This document shows, piece after piece, positions 19,295 through 30,978 of a stretch of 32,000 nucleotides of DNA. The position numbers were made by a program, and so were the translations under genes. Under the pieces are notes generated by a model. The model had not been told where the DNA came from. It saw only the letters and a list, made by a program, of their open reading frames with translations, and ran no database searches. The stretch's first letter is position 1; each line of letters starts with the position of its first letter. Source of the DNA: Candidatus Saganbacteria bacterium (GTDB lineage Bacteria > Margulisbacteria > WOR-1 > JAKLHX01); the NCBI GenBank assembly GCA_026387835.1, contig JAPLKZ010000010.1, positions 236,379 to 268,378 on the forward strand, written 5' to 3'.

Positions 19295-20419
19295 ATGTCC
19301 GACGCTAATCCTATCATGCTGAATAATTATGCCGGCAATATTGTCGCGCCCGCATCTGCCGCAACACGGGCAATAAGGCCTATGGGCATTTCCACTGTCG
19401 AAGACGCTTTGAATATCCTTAATCTGGTAAACACCGGCGGCGAAGTGCTTGATGTCAAATCTCTTGGCAAAGATAACGCCACGCTGATAAGTATCGCCTC
19501 GGAAATAGTCAAAGCCAGGAAAAACGGATCTCCGGTCCAATTCGAGAACGGAAGGATCATGATGTCAAAAGAACTTTTTGGAGCGATCGTCAGATCAGCC
19601 GAGAATACATCTAATGACGCTTCGCAGATGGGCAGATCTAAATTGACCGGCCGGAACGAGAGCTCGGGAGCGGCCCAAAAAAGTTCCGGCGCTGTCTTAA
19701 AGAACTCTTCACAGCAAAATATGCCGATGTTCGCGCCTCCTCCCCCGTATTTTGAAATGAAAAAAAGAAAAGAAAAAACTAACAGTCCTAAAGTTGCCGG
19801 CTCGGCGACTGTCAAAGAAAGGCCCGATGATGATATGGTGCCGATGCTTTCGGCTTCGCAGGCTTATTACATCCTGATAGACATCGTCCCTCCCGGAGGC
19901 GGCAGGTATGTCATGCACTTGAGGGAGAAGTTCGAGTTCCAGCCTGAAGAGAAAAACGAGCTTGAGAAAGGCCTTGAAGAGTTCTGGAGGGACTTTGGCA
20001 ACGACATATCTGTCAATGCAAGGCACACCAGCATCGTCGTAAAACCTAAGATACTGATCGGGAACCTGGTCAATTGTGAAGTATCAAAAAAACTTGTATT
20101 TGTCTATGTGTCGCAATCTACAAAGGAAAAGCTTTCAAGGGGAGCTTTGATCGCTTCATCGGACCGGGTAACAATAAGACCGAGCAAGGGTAACGTCACG
20201 ATCGACCTGAACAACAAAAAGATCCTCGATCTTATCTTTAACATGCAGACAACAATATCCGACAGCGGAAAAATGCCTGTCCGGGAAGATGCCGACGATC
20301 CTTTGCCGCGATCAACATCCGCAACTATACCGGAGCAGTCTGCCGTTATGAACCCGTTCTCCAGCCCGTTCAACAGATCCCGCATAACGGGCAGGCTCAC
20401 AACAGCGTTCAGACACTGA
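19295..20419 (+). CDS. Hypothetical protein, no recognisable domain
   Basis: 374-aa ORF. AAAGGAG lies 9 nt upstream of the ATG. Two ordered-looking regions are separated by a low-complexity S/G/Q/P/K-rich linker (about aa 95-170). The last 11 nt overlap the convergent mfd 3' end. Confidence 0.6.
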   Translation: MSDANPIMLNNYAGNIVAPASAATRAIRPMGISTVEDALNILNLVNTGGEVLDVKSLGKDNATLISIASEIVKARKNGSPVQFENGRIMMSKELFGAIVRSAENTSNDASQMGRSKLTGRNESSGAAQKSSGAVLKNSSQQNMPMFAPPPPYFEMKKRKEKTNSPKVAGSATVKERPDDDMVPMLSASQAYYILIDIVPPGGGRYVMHLREKFEFQPEEKNELEKGLEEFWRDFGNDISVNARHTSIVVKPKILIGNLVNCEVSKKLVFVYVSQSTKEKLSRGALIASSDRVTIRPSKGNVTIDLNNKKILDLIFNMQTTISDSGKMPVREDADDPLPRSTSATIPEQSAVMNPFSSPFNRSRITGRLTTAFRH

Positions 20420-22664
20420 CTTGACTATCCGACTCTTTCACAAATTTTTCTATCCGTGACAATATTTCTTTTTCCGAGGACCCTGCGATGCCGATAAGAC
20501 GTTTTTCGCTCCCCAGTTCGATAATAAGATCATTGTTTTTTTGAGTGATTTTTTTTATCCCTGCGCTTGAAGCGGATATCTTTATCCTGACAATTTCTAA
20601 CATGTTCACTGCTTCTAACGGGAGGTGCCCGAACCTGTCGACAAGCTCGTCTTCGAGGTCTTTTACCTCTTTGAAATTATCTGCAAGGTTCAGCCTTTTG
20701 TAGACGGCTATGCGCTCGACTTCATCCTCGATAAAATGATCCGGGATAAAAGCATTTATTTTTAGATCTACTAAAGTCGTGTGCTTGATCGGCGTTTTTT
20801 CGCCTTTAAAATGCGCTGCGGCCTCTTTTAGCAGATCGCAATAAAGATCGGAGCCTATAGCAAGCATGTGGCCGTGCTGCTGGCTGCCCAGGACATTCCC
20901 GGCACCTCTTATCTCAAGGTCCCTCATAGCGATCCTGTACCCGGAACCCAGGGCGGTAAATGATTTTATTGCCTGAAGCCTTTCCAGGGATCTTTCGGTC
21001 AGGACGCTGGTTTCGCGGTAAAGCAGGTATGCAAAGGCCTTTACGTTTGACCGGCCCACCCTCCCGCGCAGCTGATACAGTGTTGAAAGACCGAATTTAT
21101 CCGGATTTTCGATGATTATCGTGTTGACATTGGGGATGTCCAGCCCCGATTCGATGATCGTCGTTGACAGAAGGACGTCATATTTCCCGTCGACAAAATC
21201 CATCATTATCCGCTCGAGCTCATCCGGCTTCATCCGGCCGTGAGCGACGGCCACGGAGATTGAGGGAAGTATTTTTCCGAGTTTTTTCGCTGTGTCACCG
21301 ATCTTTTCCACGCTGTTAAAAACATAAAAGACCTGGCCGCCCCTTTCTTTTTCCTTTTCGATCGCTTGTTTCACGGTGCTTGCTCTCCAGGGCAGCACGC
21401 AGGTCTCGATCATGGACCTTCCGGGAGGAGGGGTCGTGATCAGGCTCATATCCCAGATGCCTGAAACCGCCATATAAAGGGTCCTTGGAATAGGAGTCGC
21501 CGAAAGGTTTAATACATCGACATTCTTCTTTAATCTTTTTATTTTTTCTTTGTGCGCAACGCCGAACCTCTGCTCCTCATCTATTATCAGAAGCCCCAGG
21601 TCTTTGAATTTAACATCGTTCTGCAGCAGCCGGTGAGTGCCGATGATCACGTCTATTGAGCCGGACTCGGTCTTTTTCAAAAGCTCTTTTTGCTCTGAAT
21701 GGCTTTTGAACCTGGACAGGACCTCCACCGCGAAAGGGAAAGGGGCAAAACGGGCCTGAAACAGCCGGGAATGCTGCTGGGCAAGGATCGTTGTCGGGCA
21801 AAGGAAGCAGACCTGCTTTCCAGAGGAGGCGGCTTTGAACGCTGCTCTTAGGGCAACTTCGGTTTTGCCATAACCCACATCCGCGCACAGCAGGCGGTCC
21901 ATCGGCTTATCGGATTCCATGTCCTTTTTCACCGCTCTGACCGCTTCTGTCTGGTCCGGAGTATCTTCATACGGGAAAGAGCTTTCAAGTTCTGCCTGCC
22001 AGGCATCGTCTGGAGGAAAGCTATGTCCGCTCCCGGACTTTCTTGAAGAATATGTTTCCAGAAGTTCTTTTGTCATGTCACGGATAGACTTTTTCGCCCT
22101 GCGCTTTATAAGCCTCCATTCGCTCCCGCCCAAACTGTTCAATCTTGGAATATGATCGCCCGGCACATTGTATTTTGAAATAAGATTTATTTGCTGGACC
22201 GGTATATATAAACGGTCGTCACCTGCAAATCTTAAATACAGATAATCGGATGAGACGCTGTCGACGGTCTGTTTGTCTATTCCCTCATATATGCCGATGC
22301 CGTAATCCTTGTGTACTACCGCATCGCCTTTCCTGTAATCGGCATAAAACTTTTGCGGAACGGCCTTTTCTGCCTGCACTTTGAACCGTCTTCTTGGTAT
22401 ATGCTCTCCGAAGATCTCCCTGTCCGAAAAAAGGGCTATCCCTTCCTTTGGAAGATGAAAACCCTGAGGTATCTCGCCGTGGACGATCCTGATGCTTTCT
22501 TTTAAAAGCCCGGCATCAATAAAAAGTTCCTTCAAGCGCGAGTCCTGCTTGCTTATGATAAAAGTCTCTTCCCTGCCGGCTTTAAGATCGTCGATGAACG
22601 GTTCGATATTCGGACGCAAACCTGCATTCAAAGTTGAAGGCCCCTTCATTCCTCGGAAAAGCAT
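20409..22664 (-). CDS. mfd: Transcription-repair coupling factor Mfd, C-terminal portion (RNAP-interacting/CarD-like domain, SF2 translocase, TRCF domain)
   Basis: CarD-like GDAVVHKDYGIGIYEG, helicase motif I DVGYGKTEVALRAA, DEEQRFG, SATPIPRTL, QLRGRVGRS, and a C-terminal TRCF-like region. The frame opens only after a TAA at about 22665-22667. Confidence 0.85.
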   Translation of the reverse strand: MLFRGMKGPSTLNAGLRPNIEPFIDDLKAGREETFIISKQDSRLKELFIDAGLLKESIRIVHGEIPQGFHLPKEGIALFSDREIFGEHIPRRRFKVQAEKAVPQKFYADYRKGDAVVHKDYGIGIYEGIDKQTVDSVSSDYLYLRFAGDDRLYIPVQQINLISKYNVPGDHIPRLNSLGGSEWRLIKRRAKKSIRDMTKELLETYSSRKSGSGHSFPPDDAWQAELESSFPYEDTPDQTEAVRAVKKDMESDKPMDRLLCADVGYGKTEVALRAAFKAASSGKQVCFLCPTTILAQQHSRLFQARFAPFPFAVEVLSRFKSHSEQKELLKKTESGSIDVIIGTHRLLQNDVKFKDLGLLIIDEEQRFGVAHKEKIKRLKKNVDVLNLSATPIPRTLYMAVSGIWDMSLITTPPPGRSMIETCVLPWRASTVKQAIEKEKERGGQVFYVFNSVEKIGDTAKKLGKILPSISVAVAHGRMKPDELERIMMDFVDGKYDVLLSTTIIESGLDIPNVNTIIIENPDKFGLSTLYQLRGRVGRSNVKAFAYLLYRETSVLTERSLERLQAIKSFTALGSGYRIAMRDLEIRGAGNVLGSQQHGHMLAIGSDLYCDLLKEAAAHFKGEKTPIKHTTLVDLKINAFIPDHFIEDEVERIAVYKRLNLADNFKEVKDLEDELVDRFGHLPLEAVNMLEIVRIKISASSAGIKKITQKNNDLIIELGSEKRLIGIAGSSEKEILSRIEKFVKESDSQVSV

Positions 22665-23418
22665 TTAATTCGAGGACCGTTTTCCCCGAGGGTTTTTTTA
22701 TCCTGGCATCTGCGCTTCCGGCTTCATCCATAAGTATCACGGTGTCATTTTTCATATTTTTATGGAATTCTTCTTCTTTTTTTTCTCTTACCGGCAGGAT
22801 CTCGATGTTCTCTATCAAGCGTATAGACCTCTGGGTGACCGTGTCAAACTCCCTTATCGAGGCTGCCTTGTCGTCGGAAAATTCTATCCTCACTGCCCGC
22901 CGGTCTTTCAAGAAGACATCGATTATCCCTCCTCTTACCGAGAACTCGCCGCTGTCCTCCACCATAAAGACCCTTTCATATCCTATGCCCGAAAGTTTTT
23001 TGATGAGATATTCGGTATCGATCCTTTCCGCCTTGGATATCCTGACAGTATCATCAAGAAGGCTGTCTTTTTTGTATGTCTTTTTGAACAGCGCGTCCTG
23101 CGTAGTTACGATGATCGACTTCTCGCCTGATAACATTGAAAACAACGCCGCCAGGTTCTCCGGCAAGTCATCGTTGGAAAAAAAATAGACCGGCTGTTTT
23201 CCGTCTTCGGCAAATAATTTTACTTCGCAATATATCTGTTCCGCGATATCCGCATTTTTTGCCGCAAAGACGATGTCATAAGAAGACGTGTTTGAAAAAG
23301 CCGCCAGAAACGCGGCCTTTGCCGTCCCAAAGAGCCCGGAGACCTCGCCGGCCTTTAGAAGACGCTGGATGTCGATCTTTGAGGAGAGAAATTCTGTAAG
23401 TTTAAAAAGGTTCGCCAT
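22582..23418 (-). CDS. mfd: Transcription-repair coupling factor Mfd, N-terminal portion (UvrB-homology module), in a different frame from the C-terminal portion
   Basis: 278 aa. GYERVFMVEDSGEFSVRGGIIDVF...VRIEFSDDKAASIREFDTVTQRS matches the Mfd/UvrB domain 1b-2 signature. It overlaps the 20409-22664 ORF by 83 nt in another frame. Confidence 0.75.
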   Translation of the reverse strand: MANLFKLTEFLSSKIDIQRLLKAGEVSGLFGTAKAAFLAAFSNTSSYDIVFAAKNADIAEQIYCEVKLFAEDGKQPVYFFSNDDLPENLAALFSMLSGEKSIIVTTQDALFKKTYKKDSLLDDTVRISKAERIDTEYLIKKLSGIGYERVFMVEDSGEFSVRGGIIDVFLKDRRAVRIEFSDDKAASIREFDTVTQRSIRLIENIEILPVREKKEEEFHKNMKNDTVILMDEAGSADARIKKPSGKTVLELNAFPRNEGAFNFECRFASEYRTVHRRS

Positions 23419-23421
23419 TTG

Positions 23422-23994
23422 CTAAGCCGCTGGCTTGTTATATTCGTTCATCGAGTGCGAAAGACCTTTGCCGATGATATCCTCGATCGAGCAGGAAGCC
23501 CGCTGCGTAGTTTCTTTAAGTATCTTTGCAAGATGCCTGTTCATCTTTGACAGTACGAAGTCCGCGCCCCTGTTCTTATGCCCCGGTTTGCCGATACCTA
23601 TCCTGATCCTTATAAAGCTGTCGTCATGCAGAGAATCAATAACTGATCTTACCCCGTTATGCCCTGCGCTGCCGCCGCCCTTTTTAATCTTCAGGATCCC
23701 GATATCCAGATCAAACTCGTCGTGCACAACGATGATGCTTCCCGTTTGTATGTCGTTTTTTTTGGCCATCTTGGCCACGGACTCTCCGCTCCTGTTCATA
23801 TATGTCATCGGAAGGCAGGCAATGATGTCTTCTTCGCCAAGCTTGCCTTTTCCGGCCCTTGCCATGAAAGATGAATTTCTCGACAGCTTAATGCCGTTGT
23901 TTTTTGCGAAAGTCTCGACAACCTCGAACCCTACGTTATGCCGAGTATCCTTATAATCATCTCCCGGATTGCCGAGCCCAATTATTAAATACAT
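23422..23994 (-). CDS. pth: Peptidyl-tRNA hydrolase
   Basis: 190 aa. LIIGLGNPG..Y..TRHNVGF, MNRSGESV, VHDE.DL and GHNG are Pth motifs. Confidence 0.93.
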   Translation of the reverse strand: MYLIIGLGNPGDDYKDTRHNVGFEVVETFAKNNGIKLSRNSSFMARAGKGKLGEEDIIACLPMTYMNRSGESVAKMAKKNDIQTGSIIVVHDEFDLDIGILKIKKGGGSAGHNGVRSVIDSLHDDSFIRIRIGIGKPGHKNRGADFVLSKMNRHLAKILKETTQRASCSIEDIIGKGLSHSMNEYNKPAA

Positions 23995-24023
23995 GATTTA
24001 TCTTTCTTGTGTCGAGTGGTTAA

Positions 24024-24032
24024 ATTATAGCA
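24024..24032 (-). promoter_or_regulatory. Extended -10 promoter element (TGCTATAAT) upstream of pth
   Basis: Minus strand reads GGATGCTATAATTTAACC about 30 nt upstream of the pth ATG. Confidence 0.45.
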
Positions 24033-24073
24033 TCCAGCAGGTCGGCATTCAGCAAAAAGACATTAGAAAAGAA

Positions 24074-26020
24074 TCATTCATTATCGAGGTATTTAGTTAA
24101 ATTTTTTGCTTCTATGACGGCTGTTTTCCCGTAACCTTTATTCCAGTCAAGAAGGTAATCGATCTTTTCCGTTCCGAAATCAGTCTTTGACAGGATTTCC
24201 ACGGCTTCCGCTCTTGTCAGGCCTCTTTTCGGCTCGAATCTGATTGAACTATTATCGATCAAACCTTTTTGCTTGGCGGCATCAATGTCATTGGCTGCCC
24301 AGCTTTTTTTAGAAACATCCTTGTAAGGTTTTTCCGTGACTTGCGGAGTATCAAGGCTGTCAAACCTGGAAGCGACCGTCACGCCTTCCATTCTGTTAAT
24401 ATTCTTATCGGGTTTAAAGGTCTTGTCCGGATAACCGACAACAAGGCCCATTTCGTTCGCGGCATCAACATATCTTGTCGCCCAGTCTGATTTATTAAGA
24501 TCTGGAAATATTCTCTTTTCTATAGTTTCCTTAATATCGACCCCGTTTGTCCTGACCAGCAAAGTCGCCAGCTCGGCCCGGCTCAGTATCCTGTTAGGCT
24601 GAAAAGTGCCGTCCGGATAACCTTCGGCAATTCCGGCGGTCGCTGTGTATTCTATGGGTTCTACTGCCCAGAAATCTTCCGTGACATCACTGAATGTCGC
24701 AAGCCTGATTATCCTGATCCTTTTTGATTCGAGGAGTACTCCGTTCTTGTCGTAACCTTCGACTACCACCAGTCTCTTTCCTGCTTTTTCAAGAGGGACT
24801 TTTGTCCTGAAAGTCTTGCTGCCGTCGACCGTGTCGAATGGGACAGGGATACCGTTCACCTGGATCTGATCGATGATCGGATGCACGATACCGGAAACTT
24901 TTACATAGTCCCTTCTTGTTATCAGTTTGTCCCTGGGTTTGATTATAGTTATATATTCGCGGTTTTTCTCCTCTTTTGGATCGTCCCCGACAAATGATAT
25001 CGAGAAGTAATGCGTCGCGTTCTCCTGTATGCCGCTGTACGGGTGATACGCATAATCAAACTCTATCCCTTTTAGCCTGAGGCCGATACCGTAAGTCAGA
25101 TTTCTGCCTTCGGTTATCCCGACGGTTCCCGGGACAGGATCCTGGTCGAGTCCCATCCTTATGGCAAGTATATCTATAGGCCAAAGTTCAGCTCCAAATC
25201 TCATCACGGCAGGTTTGCCGGACTGCAGGTAAAGATCGCTGTCCGCGGCAAGGTTGAGCCTGACCGGCGAAGCGATCAAAGCTTTTCCCTGTCGGCCCAA
25301 AAGGTTGACCTTTGTCCCGATCTTTGTGGTTGACGGAATGCCTTCTTCAATACCGCTTTTATAAGTAATGGCTCCGCCCATGTTCGCCGGAAGGATGTTC
25401 TGCTGGTTCAATCCGAAAGAAAGCCAAGAATTCGGAGTGTAAAGGATGCCGAGATCAAGGTCCACTCCCCTGCCGTTACCGGAAGAAGCATCGTCTGTTC
25501 CCGAAGCGGTCTGGTCAAAGTATTTAAGATTAGCACCGAGATATATGTTCTTTCCGTAATCGGCGGATATCACTTCCAGAGGAAATCCGTAAGATAAGAA
25601 CAGGACGTTGTTTGAATACCCTCCGATAGAAGTCGGGGTCGGATAATGTGTGGACGAAGCCGCATTGCTTCCGAGCACCCATATATTGTCCACCCGTGAG
25701 CCGACATAACCAAGCCCTATAGAACCAACCTCAAGAGGATATGTTCCGCCCAGTACCGCATAACTTACGTCACCCATAAGGCTTGAATACATGCTTGTGA
25801 GTTTTGGAGTTTTCATCCTTCCGAGCCCGGCAGGGTTCATGAAGATGGATTCGGCATCTTCCGCGATCGCCACATATGTTTTCCCCATTCCGAGCGACCT
25901 TGCGCCGACGCCTACATATGACGGGTCAATAGCAGAATAAGTCGCCGCAAAAAGCATTGCCTGCGACAGGATCGCTGTCACAATAATTATGTATGATATA
26001 TATTTAATCAGTCTTTTCAT
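24074..26020 (-). CDS. Outer-membrane beta-barrel protein (PorV/FadL-like N-terminal signature) fused to an Ig-like domain and three C-terminal SLH domains
   Basis: Signal peptide MKRLIKYISYIIIVTAILSQAMLFA. GARSLGMGKTYVAIAEDAESIFMNPAGLG resembles the N-terminal signature of FadL/PorV-type barrels. Alternating beta-strand pattern runs to ...THYFSISF (about aa 350). Three SLH repeats follow: FSDVTEDFWAVEPIEY..GYPDGTFQP, FPDLNKSDWATRYVDAA..GYPDKTFKP, YKDVSKKSWAANDIDAA. ATG 26020 overlaps the upstream stop (ATGA). Confidence 0.7.
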   Translation of the reverse strand: MKRLIKYISYIIIVTAILSQAMLFAATYSAIDPSYVGVGARSLGMGKTYVAIAEDAESIFMNPAGLGRMKTPKLTSMYSSLMGDVSYAVLGGTYPLEVGSIGLGYVGSRVDNIWVLGSNAASSTHYPTPTSIGGYSNNVLFLSYGFPLEVISADYGKNIYLGANLKYFDQTASGTDDASSGNGRGVDLDLGILYTPNSWLSFGLNQQNILPANMGGAITYKSGIEEGIPSTTKIGTKVNLLGRQGKALIASPVRLNLAADSDLYLQSGKPAVMRFGAELWPIDILAIRMGLDQDPVPGTVGITEGRNLTYGIGLRLKGIEFDYAYHPYSGIQENATHYFSISFVGDDPKEEKNREYITIIKPRDKLITRRDYVKVSGIVHPIIDQIQVNGIPVPFDTVDGSKTFRTKVPLEKAGKRLVVVEGYDKNGVLLESKRIRIIRLATFSDVTEDFWAVEPIEYTATAGIAEGYPDGTFQPNRILSRAELATLLVRTNGVDIKETIEKRIFPDLNKSDWATRYVDAANEMGLVVGYPDKTFKPDKNINRMEGVTVASRFDSLDTPQVTEKPYKDVSKKSWAANDIDAAKQKGLIDNSSIRFEPKRGLTRAEAVEILSKTDFGTEKIDYLLDWNKGYGKTAVIEAKNLTKYLDNE

Positions 26021-28938
26021 TTCTTTATCACCCAAATTTTTGCCCTGCCGATCAACTTGCCGTCGCCAACGATCCTTGCCATGTAGATACCGTTGCTCGC
26101 AATGTCTCCGTAGTCATCTCTGCCGTCCCACATGAACTCGTTATATCCGGCTGTGGCAACGAAGCTTCTCTTTACGGCTATCCTGCCCGTAGTATCGAAC
26201 AAGTAGATGATTACGGTCGCATCTTTGCTTATGTTAAAGCCAAGCTTGGTGGTCTCAGCCAGCGGATTGAACGGATTCGGATAATTGAATGCGCTGCCTT
26301 CTATATAAAGTGTCCCGTCCGAAACTTTTAATTTTCTGGTAAACGTAGTAGAGTTGCCGGCTGGCGCGTCTTTTGCCGTAATTTTTAACGTAAACTCTCC
26401 GGCAGATATCGGGTCTGTCAGCGTCAATGTCATTAGCCCGCTGACGGGGTTGAAGCTGACAGCCGGGAGTGAAGTCGGAGAGAATGTAGAAATTGCCTCA
26501 ACAGTGATAGATGCCGCGTCTACGCTGACATTGTCGGTTATCGTAGCTTTGATAGTCGGCTTGGTTGCTATAAGGTCGCTCTCAAGAACTGTTTTTTCGT
26601 CGACCGTTACATCGCTGATGACAGGCGGTATGGTATCGGCCGATGTGAGTATTCCGACGGCACTGCCTGAATCCTTGCCGACAACGTCCGTCTCTATGCC
26701 GTCACCGTTATAAGCGGAAATACCGTACCAGTATTTCGTGTCAGGTTCGAGCCCGTCATCATTATATTCTTTGTCTTTGATGGAATCTTTTATTTTTATC
26801 CAGTCACCGGGAGTCCCCTTTTTATCCTTTGCCCTGTAGACGCTGTATTTGCTAGAGCCGCCGTCTCCCGCGTCCCAGGCAAACTTGATCGATGCCACCG
26901 TGGCTGACATCTTGTGCAGGTTCACCGGTGTATTTGCAAGGGTATACCGCGTCACTGCTTCTGTAGTGGCTGATGCACCGTCATCGTTATAAGCCGCGCA
27001 ATATCTTGTATACGGAGTGTTTGCGGACAATCCGGCCTCGTTCGCTTCCGTTAACGGCGAAGCAACGGTCTTCTTCAGGGCTCCCGCTCCATCGCTGATA
27101 TTGAAACCGGTCTCGTTCGTCGAATTCCTTGCCCACGTCCACTTGATCCCCGTAGTCCCTGTGGCAGTTCCCGCAAACGATGTTGGCGCTGCCGGCGGGT
27201 TCAATACCGTCGCTATAAGATAATCCACGTAATGCGGCGTCAGGCTTGTATTCTTGCCTGTATATACGAACTGGTAAGCGCTGATGTTCTTGTCAAAAAT
27301 ACCGTTGCCGTCAGTCGGGGTCCCGTTATCAAAATTCTGGACCAGTGATTTGAACGGGATCTTCACGAATTGCCATTCCGTGTTCTTTAGGCTGATCGCA
27401 GGCCCTGAATATATCTCGTGTGTCATGCTCCATGATCCATATGGAGAAACGTTGGTCGCTTCAAATACATCCAGTCTTATCGTATTATTAGTCCCGTCAC
27501 CTTTGAGCCAGAAGGCAAAAGCATTGGTAAGGATCAGGTTTTTGTTTGAAACAAGGTCCCCTTTCATCAGCCCGCCCCAGTCGCTTGAAAATGAATAAAG
27601 GATCCTTCTTGACTGCGCTCCGTTCTTTATGAACAAGGGATTAGTATTGAATACTGAGCTGCATCCGGTTCCGTAATTGTTATAAGCCGATACTTCCACG
27701 CCCTCGTAATTATCAATAAGGACAGACGTGCTCGGCCCAAAATCAATTGCCGTAAACCGGTCAGCGGCGGTGGACGGAGAAGTGCCTCCTGGAGTGACAA
27801 CGGTAATATCATAGGTGCCTGCGGGAAGGCCCGATGGGATGGTAGCCCTGATTTCCGTAGCCGAGTTGCTGATCATCGTCAAGGGAACAGTTCCGATCTT
27901 AACAGCTGTAGCACTTGACAGGTTAGTGCCTGTTATAGTGATATCGTTCGGCACGTCATTGTTCCCGCTAGTCGGTGAGATCCCTGTCACGACGGGAGAA
28001 AGTGAGCTGATGACCGTGAACTGGTCGGCCGAAGACGTGGCCGATGTACCGTAAGTATTCGTGACGGAAATATGGTAGACTCCGGGAGTTAGTGCTGATT
28101 GTATTACCGCATTTATAGTAGTATCGCTGATAACTGCGAACGTGCTTACTGGATCTGTCCCGATCTTTACCGAGCTTGCGGTGGCCAAATTAGTCCCTGT
28201 TATTGTAACTGGCGTGCCTGCCGTGTTAAGACCAAAAGTCGGTGAGACACCGCTGACCGCCGGTACGGGCACCGCGAGCACGGTGAACTGGCCGGAACTG
28301 TTCGCAGGTGACGTGCCGTCAGCGTTGGTCACTGTAATATAGTAAGTGCCCGGGGTAAGACCTGAAGGGACTCTTGCAATTATCTCCGTGCTTGAATTGC
28401 TGACTATCGTCATGCCTGTTGCCCCGACATTTACAGCTGTCGCGCCTGACAGATTAGTACCTGTTATAGTGACCGGGACTTCCGCATTGTTTATACCGCT
28501 GCTCGGGGTGATCGATGTCACGGCCGGCGAACTGGTGGAAATCACGGAAAACTGGTCTACCCAAGACGTCGCAGATGTGCCGTCAGCATTTGTGACCGTT
28601 ATATGGTAAACATTGGGGATAATTCCCGATTGTATGACTGCAGTTATGGTCGTGTCATTTACAACACTGAAACTTTGGACGGGAAATGAATCGATCTTTA
28701 CGGCGGACGTTCCGGTAAAATAAACTCCGGAGATCGTGACTTCGGTAGTCCCTGTATTTAAACCGCTTACCGGGCTGATAGAAGTGACCGAAGGGACCGT
28801 TCCGCCTACGACTCCTGTTCCGATCGTTATCCAGCTGTCGGAAAAAGAGGCCGGTATGGAAAAAAGCAGCAGCAGCGCTGCAATGACAGCCACTGCGACC
28901 GGTTTGCTGTATAATGATCTTATTTTTTTACTCAACAT
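26017..28938 (-). CDS. Large secreted surface protein: four IPT/TIG domains, a CBM-like beta-sandwich, two FN3 domains, an Ig-like region, and a C-terminal FlgD-Ig/T9SS-CTD-like domain
   Basis: 973 aa. Signal/anchor AVAVIAALLLLFSIPASF. Four units of about 88 aa of the type P.VTSISP.SG.N.....VTITGTNL.....V.IG........S.T.I.A.IPSGL.PG.Y.ITV.N..GTS. FN3-like segments (PAAPTSF..GIKWTW; PVNLHKMSATVASIKFAW...YSVYRAK...TKYWYGISAYN). C-terminus NYPNPFNP..TTKLGFNISKDATVIIYLFDTTGRIAV...FMWDGRDDYGDIASNGIYMARIV. Confidence 0.75.
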   Translation of the reverse strand: MLSKKIRSLYSKPVAVAVIAALLLLFSIPASFSDSWITIGTGVVGGTVPSVTSISPVSGLNTGTTEVTISGVYFTGTSAVKIDSFPVQSFSVVNDTTITAVIQSGIIPNVYHITVTNADGTSATSWVDQFSVISTSSPAVTSITPSSGINNAEVPVTITGTNLSGATAVNVGATGMTIVSNSSTEIIARVPSGLTPGTYYITVTNADGTSPANSSGQFTVLAVPVPAVSGVSPTFGLNTAGTPVTITGTNLATASSVKIGTDPVSTFAVISDTTINAVIQSALTPGVYHISVTNTYGTSATSSADQFTVISSLSPVVTGISPTSGNNDVPNDITITGTNLSSATAVKIGTVPLTMISNSATEIRATIPSGLPAGTYDITVVTPGGTSPSTAADRFTAIDFGPSTSVLIDNYEGVEVSAYNNYGTGCSSVFNTNPLFIKNGAQSRRILYSFSSDWGGLMKGDLVSNKNLILTNAFAFWLKGDGTNNTIRLDVFEATNVSPYGSWSMTHEIYSGPAISLKNTEWQFVKIPFKSLVQNFDNGTPTDGNGIFDKNISAYQFVYTGKNTSLTPHYVDYLIATVLNPPAAPTSFAGTATGTTGIKWTWARNSTNETGFNISDGAGALKKTVASPLTEANEAGLSANTPYTRYCAAYNDDGASATTEAVTRYTLANTPVNLHKMSATVASIKFAWDAGDGGSSKYSVYRAKDKKGTPGDWIKIKDSIKDKEYNDDGLEPDTKYWYGISAYNGDGIETDVVGKDSGSAVGILTSADTIPPVISDVTVDEKTVLESDLIATKPTIKATITDNVSVDAASITVEAISTFSPTSLPAVSFNPVSGLMTLTLTDPISAGEFTLKITAKDAPAGNSTTFTRKLKVSDGTLYIEGSAFNYPNPFNPLAETTKLGFNISKDATVIIYLFDTTGRIAVKRSFVATAGYNEFMWDGRDDYGDIASNGIYMARIVGDGKLIGRAKIWVIKK
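27736..28794 (-). repeat. Intragenic tandem repeat: two copies of a 531-bp two-domain (IPT-A + IPT-B) unit
   Basis: Protein repeats 1 and 3 resemble each other most, as do repeats 2 and 4. DNA at 27815 onward aligns with 28346 onward (offset 531 nt) with frequent identities, for example ...cctgttatagtga... in both. Confidence 0.7.
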
Positions 28939-29698
28939 TAAATACTTTTTCCTCGGTCTTTATTTTGTCTGCGCCATAATCAAACAATCCCAACATTTTT
29001 ACATTGCCCTTTGGAAGGTCCGTTTTGCCGCTGTAATCAATATTATATTCTTCATCGGGATATGTCATGAAAGAACCCGCTTTAAGGGTGTCCAGGAGCT
29101 TTCCGTCCGGACCGAGGACTAGAAATGTAGCTCTAACGTCCTGAAAAGTGTTGCCCGTATTTTTAACTTTTGAGCTGATCGTGAGGACCTCTGATGAACA
29201 TTTCGCGTCAAATGATTTTACCGACATGGCATGGTCCGCCGTGCCTTTCACCGAGACCCTGAAAGGCATTTCGATGTTCATATTTATGTTCAAAGTTATA
29301 TCCGAAGGCCCTTGAACGGTGCTTGTCCGGTATGAGTATAAAAGGCCGGAGGAATATCCGCCCTTTGCATCCTGGGGAACTGCTGTCCTGAACCTCAGGT
29401 CTTTTATACTTTTGGGGGGGATCGAAAATTTTTCTTCTTCGATCTTTGTCCACTTTGAACATGAATATTTCGCGGGTTTCCCGTCTTTGTCCAGCGAATT
29501 TACCATCCCGGCCGTCACATCGATCGCGCTGTCGGAAGTGTTCTCAAGGATAACTCCGCCGTTAAATACCTGCCCTTTTTCAAGATAAAGCTCTATCGAA
29601 GGCTGTCTTAACAAAAGCGCCGACTGGCAAGGAGCACTGATGATAAATATTACCAGTGCCGGCAACAAGATGTTTTTTAATATACTAATAACTTTCAT
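28928..29698 (-). CDS. Secreted two-lobed beta-sandwich (Ig-like) protein, possibly chaperone-like; function unknown
   Basis: 256 aa. Signal peptide MKVISILKNILLPALVIFIISAPCQSA. Beta-rich alternating pattern in two halves (SIELYLEKGQVFNGGVILENTSDSAIDV...; LTISSKVKNTGNTFQDVRATFLVLGPDG...). The stop overlaps the next gene's start by 11 nt. Confidence 0.5.
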   Translation of the reverse strand: MKVISILKNILLPALVIFIISAPCQSALLLRQPSIELYLEKGQVFNGGVILENTSDSAIDVTAGMVNSLDKDGKPAKYSCSKWTKIEEEKFSIPPKSIKDLRFRTAVPQDAKGGYSSGLLYSYRTSTVQGPSDITLNINMNIEMPFRVSVKGTADHAMSVKSFDAKCSSEVLTISSKVKNTGNTFQDVRATFLVLGPDGKLLDTLKAGSFMTYPDEEYNIDYSGKTDLPKGNVKMLGLFDYGADKIKTEEKVFNVE

Positions 29699-29760: not shown

Positions 29761-30816
29761 CTAGTTAGCCGTTCTCTGGTAAATGCCGATGTTGCATGAT
29801 TTGCTGCCAGGAGTAACGCCCACTCCGGTGGGCCATATTGCAATGAACTGCATATGGAGCTTTTCTGTCCTGTGACATGTATTATCAGCCGGAGACACAT
29901 AGACGAGGCCTACCTGGCTCCTTGCCGTTATCACAAAACCGTTGGCGTTGCTCGCGACTACTGTATTTCTGTCAGTATTGTAGCAGAGCGCGCTGTCGGT
30001 ATTTGCGGCCATCTGGACCTTTGTCTTTCCGGAGATCTGCGCATCGTTAGGCGGAACTGAAGACCCCGCGGTGCCGATTAAAAACGTCTTGATCTGGTCG
30101 GCTGTGGCACCCGAAATGAGAGGGAGCGTGTTGAACAAAACAACAGACCCGTTGCTTTTATATCCCCACTGCTTTTCGGGGGTCCCGTTCGGATCATCGG
30201 ACCATGAAAACCATCTCATTGTCGAGAGTCTGGGATCAAGCACTGTTCCCGTGGCCGCCCCTGCCGTTCCCGTAAGAACATCATTGTCGGCATAAGCATA
30301 TACCGTCCACTGGTAATTGGCCAGATCCCAGTAAGGGGCCTGTATCGTCAATCCTGTCTCGTAGAACATATTGACATCTGTTCCTGTAAGATAAGTCGAC
30401 GGTTTTGACGCTTCAGGGGATCCCGCGCCATCAGCCGGGTTTATGGCATCGCCCTTTACCCAGACCGAGGGGAACGGCGATGAAGCGGTCAGCGGAAATA
30501 ATTTGTATGTTCCCGCATGATTAAGTATCGCCGAGGTCTTTCCCACTATACTTGTTTTTACCACCGATGTCGTACCGTTCAGGGTATTACCAAAAACTGT
30601 ATTGGCTTGGTCCGCAAGCTGAAGATTGGAAATTGTAAGGTTGAACATAGCCGGCGCAACGGCAAAAGCCTGGAAACTCCACGCGCCGTTCGTGTATCCT
30701 TCGGTCAACGCGGGGTAGTCTACCGGGATCCCTCCTGATCCCGCCGCCATGGCGGGAACAATGAATACCGCTGACATGACCGCCGCGCACACTATCGAAC
30801 AAAACACTTTCTTCAT
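29761..30816 (-). CDS. Secreted protein of unknown family (candidate major surface or fibre subunit)
   Basis: ATG 30816 has AGGAGG 7 nt upstream. Signal peptide MKKVFCSIVCAAVMSAVFIVPAMA-AG. The mature protein is rich in T/S/G/A/N and poor in K/R, with Cys residues near the C-terminus (NTCHRT...SKSCNIG). The ORF-track start at 30864 is upstream of the SD. Confidence 0.6.
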   Translation of the reverse strand: MKKVFCSIVCAAVMSAVFIVPAMAAGSGGIPVDYPALTEGYTNGAWSFQAFAVAPAMFNLTISNLQLADQANTVFGNTLNGTTSVVKTSIVGKTSAILNHAGTYKLFPLTASSPFPSVWVKGDAINPADGAGSPEASKPSTYLTGTDVNMFYETGLTIQAPYWDLANYQWTVYAYADNDVLTGTAGAATGTVLDPRLSTMRWFSWSDDPNGTPEKQWGYKSNGSVVLFNTLPLISGATADQIKTFLIGTAGSSVPPNDAQISGKTKVQMAANTDSALCYNTDRNTVVASNANGFVITARSQVGLVYVSPADNTCHRTEKLHMQFIAIWPTGVGVTPGSKSCNIGIYQRTAN

Positions 30817-30978
30817 AATTTTTCCTCCTTTCTTAATAGAAGTGATCAAAGACATCGCACACATTAAAAATCACCTGCCTTTCCTTGCAGAATAGTCTTG
30901 TTTTCCCTTCAATAATATATCGTCAAATATTATTGTGAATTTCACTCTTTTTTGTGTTACACAACAATTTCATAAATA

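Follow-up and report, generated by a model that had tools for sequence, protein, structure and literature searches.

A PorV-family outer-membrane barrel fused to an SLH module and coupled to the gene of a surface protein with a type IX-like sorting domain in a Saganbacteria genome

PorU and PorZ of the Bacteroidota are held on the outer-membrane barrels PorV and PorQ through C-terminal domains (CTDs) that they retain. PorV (LptO) and PorQ belong to the T9SS (type IX secretion system) attachment complex, in which they anchor these two proteins (PMC5562754), and the parts of this system are presented as specific to the Bacteroidota (for example, PMC7192894, PMC12365241). A second arrangement involves cargo with a type B CTD, which binds its own PorP/SprF-like barrel, this barrel being linked to the wall via the peptidoglycan-binding protein PorE (PMC9143113, PMC7192894). 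Here we describe a gene of a Candidatus Saganbacteria bacterium (assembly GCA_026387835.1) in which a PorV-like barrel is fused to an immunoglobulin (Ig)-like domain and three SLH repeats, and which lies directly downstream of, and overlaps, a gene whose product ends in a T9SS-type CTD. The whole stretch of DNA that was analysed, hereafter the window, comprises 32,000 nucleotides of contig JAPLKZ010000010.1 (positions 236,379 to 268,378), and coordinates without a contig label refer to it. The barrel-SLH protein has the following features, all on the minus strand.

24074..26020, minus strand: gene for the PorV-like barrel with Ig-like domain and three SLH repeats, 648 aa, ATG at 26020, stop codon 24074-24076 (open reading frame list, translation, Pfam, NCBIfam, AlphaFold2)
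25946..26020, minus strand: signal peptide, about aa 1-25, MKRLIKYISYIIIVTAILSQAMLFA (by eye from the sequence, presumed cleavage site)
24992..25939, minus strand: PorV/PorQ-family 14-strand outer-membrane barrel with N-terminal hatch, aa 28-343 (NF033709, DSSP, Foldseek)
24992..25018, minus strand: last barrel strand, aa 335-343, containing the internal beta-signal-like THYFSISF (AlphaFold2 model, conservation)
24953..24991, minus strand: flexible linker, aa 344-356, VGDDPKEEKNREY (predicted local distance difference test score, pLDDT, below 50 at aa 348-353)
24704..24952, minus strand: Ig-like beta-sandwich spacer, aa 357-439 (eight strands, high pLDDT)
24146..24697, minus strand: three SLH repeats forming one putative wall-polymer-binding module, aa 442-625 (Pfam, Sap alignment, Foldseek)

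The order of domains, barrel, Ig and three SLH repeats, had been proposed in a first-pass annotation of the window, and it is borne out by Pfam and by an AlphaFold2 model of the 648-aa protein (built on an alignment of 59 homologues; mean pLDDT 85.1), the earlier boundaries being off by a few residues only. In this model, the signal peptide region forms a helix at aa 2-20 and a low-confidence stretch at aa 19-27. The barrel, which had been placed at aa 35-350, is predicted to be closed: 14 long strands, counted on the DSSP string, span aa 73-343 and are preceded by a hatch-like segment at aa 28-72. THYFSISF, read earlier as an internal beta-signal-like strand, is indeed part of the last modelled strand, and in the 59 homologues its residues T336, F339 and S340 show little or no variation. 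The Ig-like domain (previously put at about aa 358-445) is modelled as a sandwich, and its region aa 357-428 gives a weak Glucodextran_B-like Pfam match below the cut-off (E 1.4e-4). Pfam recognizes the three SLH repeats (E 2.6e-33) at about 24566-24697, 24386-24508 and 24203-24328, in agreement with the span 24182-24694 given before. More than 120 full-length homologues of the protein were found, with 37 to 73% identity; together with the family match of the barrel (E 1.3e-26), they put the architecture well outside what chance would produce.

The barrel belongs to the PorV/PorQ family, a FadL-like family with 14 strands. The NCBIfam model of this family, NF033709, aligns its positions 9-324 (of 326) with aa 36-343 and scores 94 bits for a cut-off of 90 (E 1.3e-26). 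When the protein was compared with the PDB using Foldseek, the top match was 8gl6_F (E 8.6e-12, target TM 0.64), a 367-residue chain of the T9SS complex bound to the RemA CTD, which we take to be PorV. FadL and TodX were found among lower-ranked matches (E about 1e-7 to 1e-8), and PorV comes ahead of FadL in the hidden Markov model (HMM) search as well as in the fold search. The NPAG motif of the hatch is retained. Members of the family are named 'PorV/PorQ family protein' or 'SLH domain-containing protein' by NCBI.

Immediately upstream of the barrel gene lies a gene for a large secreted protein, which we call the partner, itself preceded by two further genes of the operon.

26017..28938, minus strand: partner, secreted, 973 aa, carrying four TIG domains, one CBM11-like domain, two FN3 domains and, at the C-terminus, a sorting domain (Pfam, NCBIfam)
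26020..26283, minus strand: T9SS type A CTD of the partner, aa about 886-973, YPNPFNP...WDGRD...GKIWVIKK (TIGR04183, AlphaFold2, Foldseek)
28928..29698, minus strand: operon gene 2, 256-aa secreted Ig-like protein (signal peptide by eye, weak WxLIP_PGBD match)
29761..30864, minus strand: operon gene 1, 367-aa secreted protein, family unassigned (translation)

The TGA stop of the partner gene overlaps the ATG of the barrel gene (ATGA), and the two genes are translationally coupled. The CTD of the partner scores 28.1 bits with TIGR04183 (cut-off 23), and the C-terminal part of the PorU model matches it with an E-value of 2.1e-12. An AlphaFold2 model of the last 130 residues of the partner (pLDDT 86.9) finds PorU of Porphyromonas gingivalis as its best PDB match (6za2, E 6.5e-7), followed by FlgD, PorZ (5m11) being at rank 10. 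This gene order is conserved: counting the window, a CTD-ending gene lies directly upstream of the barrel gene in 18 of 19 loci, and the signature YPNPF[ND]P...WDGRD...GK(I/L)xV(I/L)K is found upstream in 17 of the 18 further loci, which come from diverse Margulisiibacteriota and Saganbacteria for which upstream sequence was at hand. The 256-aa and 367-aa genes recur in this order in three same-family genomes, where the 367-aa orthologues stand at the matching position with 48 to 52% identity, but not in more distant relatives; the conserved core therefore consists of the CTD gene and the barrel gene. No Pfam match was obtained for the 367-aa protein. In the whole genome, TIGR04183 has six matches, three of them above the cut-off.

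The same genome (1.5 Mb, 95% complete) contains at least four further clear PorV-like paralogues and several weaker matches. The four differ in what follows the barrel.

C12:128815-130038, plus strand: barrel, Pro/Ala/Glu-rich linker and one LysM (LysM by Pfam)
C12:134209-135606, plus strand: barrel, Pro/Ala/Glu-rich linker and two LysM (LysM by Pfam)
C12:1850-3307, minus strand: barrel, Pro/Ala-rich linker of about 80 residues, hydrophobic helix and RYRR
C3:89299-90486: barrel and short Pro-rich tail

In these paralogues, one family of barrels has been joined, module by module, to different periplasmic anchors. Those with LysM or helix tails are likewise found directly downstream of CTD genes. 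Both LysM-type barrels follow a large protein, and the CTDs of these two upstream proteins are nearly identical, which points to a recent duplication of a cargo-plus-barrel cassette. The helix-tailed paralogue could link the outer to the inner membrane; an exosortase, as its possible processor, was searched for in the genome and none was found.

The first-pass annotation had described the barrel-SLH protein as an outer-membrane tether of the OmpM/Slp type with its order reversed. In this reading, it would be a derivative of the Terrabacterial SLH porins doing the job of OmpM with swapped domains. The protein does share with OmpM, Slp and the cyanobacterial SLH porins the combination of SLH and barrel in one chain, together with a CsaB in the genome, and like them it would connect outer membrane and wall in a diderm of the Terrabacteria. 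A survey of OmpM defines this protein as SLH plus barrel regardless of order, so that the present protein would formally be included, and proteins of this kind may have been counted as OmpM there (bioRxiv 10.1101/2021.05.31.446380). However, the barrel is of the PorV/FadL type and unrelated to the porin type, and the three SLH repeats with an Ig spacer differ from the single N-terminal SLH and coiled-coil stalk that precede the C-terminal porin barrel of OmpM/Slp. Moreover, sister paralogues carry LysM in place of SLH, which shows independent domain fusion, and a gene with the canonical OmpM layout coexists in the genome.

C9:157387-158877, plus strand: OmpM-like protein, 490 aa (signal peptide, one N-terminal SLH, coiled-coil-like stretch, beta-rich C-terminal part, terminal aromatic residue)

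This protein and the barrel-SLH protein are the only two SLH proteins of the genome. On the grounds of the barrel family and of the coexisting OmpM-like gene, we reject a reversed or circularly permuted OmpM, which we find hardly credible at all.

The question arises as to where the C-terminal tail is located. Following topological rules, both termini of the barrel should be periplasmic, because the number of strands (14) is even and the N-terminus, by virtue of the Sec signal peptide, lies on the periplasmic side; the wall-binding nature of the modules in the tail points the same way. The swapping of tails among paralogues fits a periplasmic, wall-directed C-terminus. An extracellular Ig-SLH arm that binds an S-layer or a surface glycan instead of the wall might be considered, given that SLH modules anchor S-layers in monoderm bacteria. 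It would, however, require the two ends of an even-stranded barrel to lie on opposite sides, and some paralogues have at this place LysM, or a membrane helix with basic residues, which make sense only in the periplasm or at the inner membrane. We consider this arrangement very improbable.

A second difficulty had been raised earlier, namely how a barrel whose C-terminal signal is followed by some 300 residues could be recognized by the beta-barrel assembly machinery (BAM). OmpA is built on the same plan, with the barrel first and then a periplasmic wall-binding domain. Trimeric autotransporters of Veillonella and other Terrabacteria have SLH after the barrel (PMC7549365; bioRxiv 10.64898/2026.01.22.700529), and a 2026 preprint reports that Terrabacterial autotransporters almost invariably have such periplasmic domains (10.64898/2026.01.22.700529). 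More distant, tail-less relatives of the present barrel have the corresponding aromatic residue as their very last one (...ATWKF, ...VAYKF, ...VHIGF). With these precedents and these relatives, the paradox dissolves. The genome encodes BamA, close to a TamB-like protein of 1550 aa.

The SLH module is a triple module of the Sap/SpaA type, with three repeats in one module and TRAE-type motifs. It aligns end to end with the SLH module of Bacillus anthracis Sap (E 1e-18), and Foldseek gives a target TM of 0.85 to the structure of the latter (3pyw) and further matches to SpaA-SLH structures bound to pyruvylated N-acetylmannosamine (ManNAc). The arginine of the TRAE-type motif is present in all three repeats (SRAE, NRME and TRAE, opposite TRAE, DRVS and TKAE of Sap), and R481, E483, E545 and R603 are invariant among the 59 homologues. 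A search for csaB, suggested by the first-pass annotation, yielded one CsaB-type pyruvyl transferase in the genome, fused to a TagA/WecG glycosyltransferase.

C10:183465-185276, minus strand: CsaB-TagA fusion, a single 602-aa protein with PF04230 (pyruvyl transferase) and PF03808 (TagA/WecG glycosyltransferase)

In the pathway as studied in Paenibacillus and Bacillus, TagA supplies ManNAc and CsaB pyruvylates it. With the fusion, a single enzyme would produce what is presumed to be the ligand of the SLH module. Its presence supports the availability of a pyruvylated secondary cell-wall polymer as the putative ligand, and the earlier proposal of a periplasmic arm aimed at such a polymer is plausible.

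The remaining parts of a T9SS were also looked for. For SprA, nothing was found in the genome at the family cut-off. An outer-membrane protein of 1340 aa (C6:71202-75221, minus strand), with a signal peptide and a terminal ...TINF, is encoded convergently with a CTD gene; its only NCBIfam match is SprA (E 1.8e-17), at 61.9 bits for a cut-off of 200, in four stretches that all fall on one SprA segment. A relative of this protein exists in 140 of the 146 genomes of the phylum. As a candidate exit pore for CTD proteins, it is a lead rather than a result. PorU models match the genome through CTDs only. GldL and GldM gave no matches in the genome, which are weak negatives as the searches had no positive control. 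A full T9SS is thus not recognised in this 95% complete genome, SprA and PorU models staying below their cut-offs and GldL/GldM giving nothing in these uncontrolled searches. A tentative, and somewhat doubtful, possibility is that Margulisbacteria/Saganbacteria run a stripped-down relative of the T9SS, with a giant, nearly universal SprA-like protein as pore, CTD cargo and dedicated PorV-like end stations, each fused to SLH, LysM or a membrane helix as its wall binder, and with neither sortase nor PorLM motor.

Taken together, these data lead us to favour, as rather probable, the view that the barrel-SLH protein, a PorV-like barrel stapled to the wall, serves as the docking site of the CTD partner encoded with it. 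After re-entry of the barrel C-terminus into the periplasm, a short flexible linker and one Ig-like spacer would lead to the three-repeat SLH module, which would bind the pyruvylated secondary cell-wall polymer made with the CsaB-TagA fusion, and so staple the barrel, and hence the outer membrane, to the wall. Outside, the barrel would hold the CTD of the TIG/FN3 surface protein encoded upstream, in the way the Bacteroidota barrels PorV and PorQ do with PorU and PorZ, respectively. Because no PorU-type sortase is detectable, the CTD is probably left uncleaved and the partner would stay non-covalently bound, having crossed the outer membrane by a route in which the 1340-aa protein may take part. 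The pair would then act as a stationary site of display, anchored to the wall, and not as a mobile shuttle.

Alternatively, the protein may be a general outer-membrane staple, a FadL-like channel for hydrophobic compounds, or both, its CTD neighbour being unrelated or only co-regulated. The barrel would then be a transporter or no more than an anchor in the membrane, and the SLH tail would tie the outer membrane to the wall as OmpM or OmpA do. In favour of this, FadL and TodX are strong fold matches and the NPAG motif is kept. Extra staples would also be useful in this genome, which has a single OmpM-like protein and no OmpA-domain tethers (PF00691 had no match anywhere in the genome, the controls being positive in six genomes), and the LysM of the paralogues is another wall binder. 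On the other hand, PorV outranks FadL in both searches, a CTD gene directly precedes the barrel gene in 18 of 19 loci despite their deep divergence (in the window, start and stop overlap), and several full-length copies per genome (up to about eight) suit dedicated partners better than a housekeeping staple. We therefore regard the staple or channel as unlikely.

Several observations nevertheless weigh against a docking barrel. The contact between CTD and barrel is deduced from gene order and domain identities, and adjacency could reflect co-regulation only. The score with the family model is merely 4 bits above the cut-off, and the NCBIfam equivalog models for PorV, PorQ and PorV2 fail by far on the protein (20.2 bits for a cut-off of 250 with NF033710, 28.7 for 220 with NF033711, and 40.3 for 325 with NF052325). 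The fold matches of the partner CTD to PorU and PorZ are suggestive only, as Ig-like folds match promiscuously. Three of the roughly seven CTD proteins of the genome have no adjacent barrel. Finally, the core T9SS is not recognisable, with just the remote 1340-aa relative for SprA and CTDs alone for PorU.

The barrel-SLH architecture is common within its class, as full-length matches were found in 65 of 65 genomes. Some of these genomes have several full-length copies listed, up to about eight (G122), some in tandem (for example, G095:C12:24926-28931 and G129:C1:1010964-1016523), and some homologues of 840 to 940 aa (P0028, for instance) carry two SLH triples, that is, six repeats. In other classes of the phylum, occurrence is patchy. 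Among the matches listed in a scan of 185,579 species genomes, the full-length ones were named only Margulisiibacteriota/Saganbacteria or were unnamed metagenome-assembled genomes, and matches from all other phyla were confined to the SLH part; this is an indication only that the full-length architecture is restricted to Margulisiibacteriota/Saganbacteria. The first-pass annotation had envisaged that the architecture might prove common and already described. The former is the case; as to the latter, we found no paper on a PorV-SLH fusion or on a T9SS-like system in Margulisbacteria, in a search that left most subscription journals outside.

By analogy, the closest functional parallels would be the PorU-PorV and PorZ-PorQ pairs and the type B CTD/PorP/PorE complex. 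With the first two, the locus shares the barrel family, by HMM and by fold (structures 8GL6, 6ZA2, 5M11), and a type A CTD, the model of which has its best matches in the retained CTDs of PorU and PorZ; in the reading favoured here, it would also share the use of a barrel as outer-membrane anchor of a CTD protein. It differs in that PorV and PorQ are without a periplasmic tail, whereas the Margulisbacterial protein adds an Ig-like domain and three SLH repeats, in that the equivalog models fail on the Margulisbacterial barrel, and in that the genes of barrel and partner form a fixed pair. The known pairs are those of Bacteroidota, while the present one belongs to a Margulisbacterium, from a sister lineage of the Cyanobacteria, where no PorU sortase or recognisable PorL/PorM was found (the latter in an uncontrolled search) and where only a remote, half-size SprA-like protein exists. 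The resemblance to the type B complex, which forms independently of PorU and PorV, would lie in a surface cargo sitting on its own barrel, itself tied to the wall via a periplasmic wall binder. However, the wall binder PorE is a separate, OmpA_C-like protein, in contrast to the fused SLH or LysM found here, and the Margulisbacterial barrel scores as PorV/PorQ and not as PorP, its CTD partner as type A.

The likeness to OmpA and to the SLH autotransporters is one of layout: the barrel comes first, the periplasmic wall binder last, and the beta-signal is internal, the tail of the autotransporters being SLH as well (PMC7549365; bioRxiv 10.64898/2026.01.22.700529). The barrels have 8 strands in OmpA and 12 in the trimeric YadA-type anchor, versus 14 here. 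The autotransporter passenger is in the same chain, whereas a separate CTD protein is found here, and the Margulisbacterial protein is without an OmpA_C-like domain.

Two observations concern the genes on the other side of the barrel-SLH gene. The 79-nt gap that separates it from pth (23994-24073) contains TGCTATAAT, an extended -10-like element near the ATG of pth, and no obvious terminator. Beyond, mfd is read as two overlapping minus-strand open reading frames of 278 aa (22582..23418) and 751 aa (20409..22664), which overlap at 22582-22664; a frameshift or a fault in the assembly could account for this split.

PorV-family barrels and CTD tags are thus present as gene pairs across a phylum related to the Cyanobacteria, with the barrel fused to wall binders. 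The protein is a further clear example of a beta-signal that lies within the chain, with about 300 presumably periplasmic residues after it, and surveys based on 'SLH plus beta-barrel' would count such proteins as OmpM despite their different barrel family (bioRxiv 10.1101/2021.05.31.446380). If the barrel does hold its partner, surface protein, outer membrane and wall would be fastened in three simple layers. This seems to be a so far undescribed means of fixing a surface protein to the wall across the outer membrane, and it might represent T9SS-style surface attachment in a minimal or ancestral version. If, in addition, the stripped-down T9SS relative is real, T9SS-type parts would have arisen or spread beyond the Bacteroidota/FCB (Fibrobacteres-Chlorobi-Bacteroidetes) group, and it would add to the Terrabacteria a second, cargo-bearing class of outer-membrane tether.

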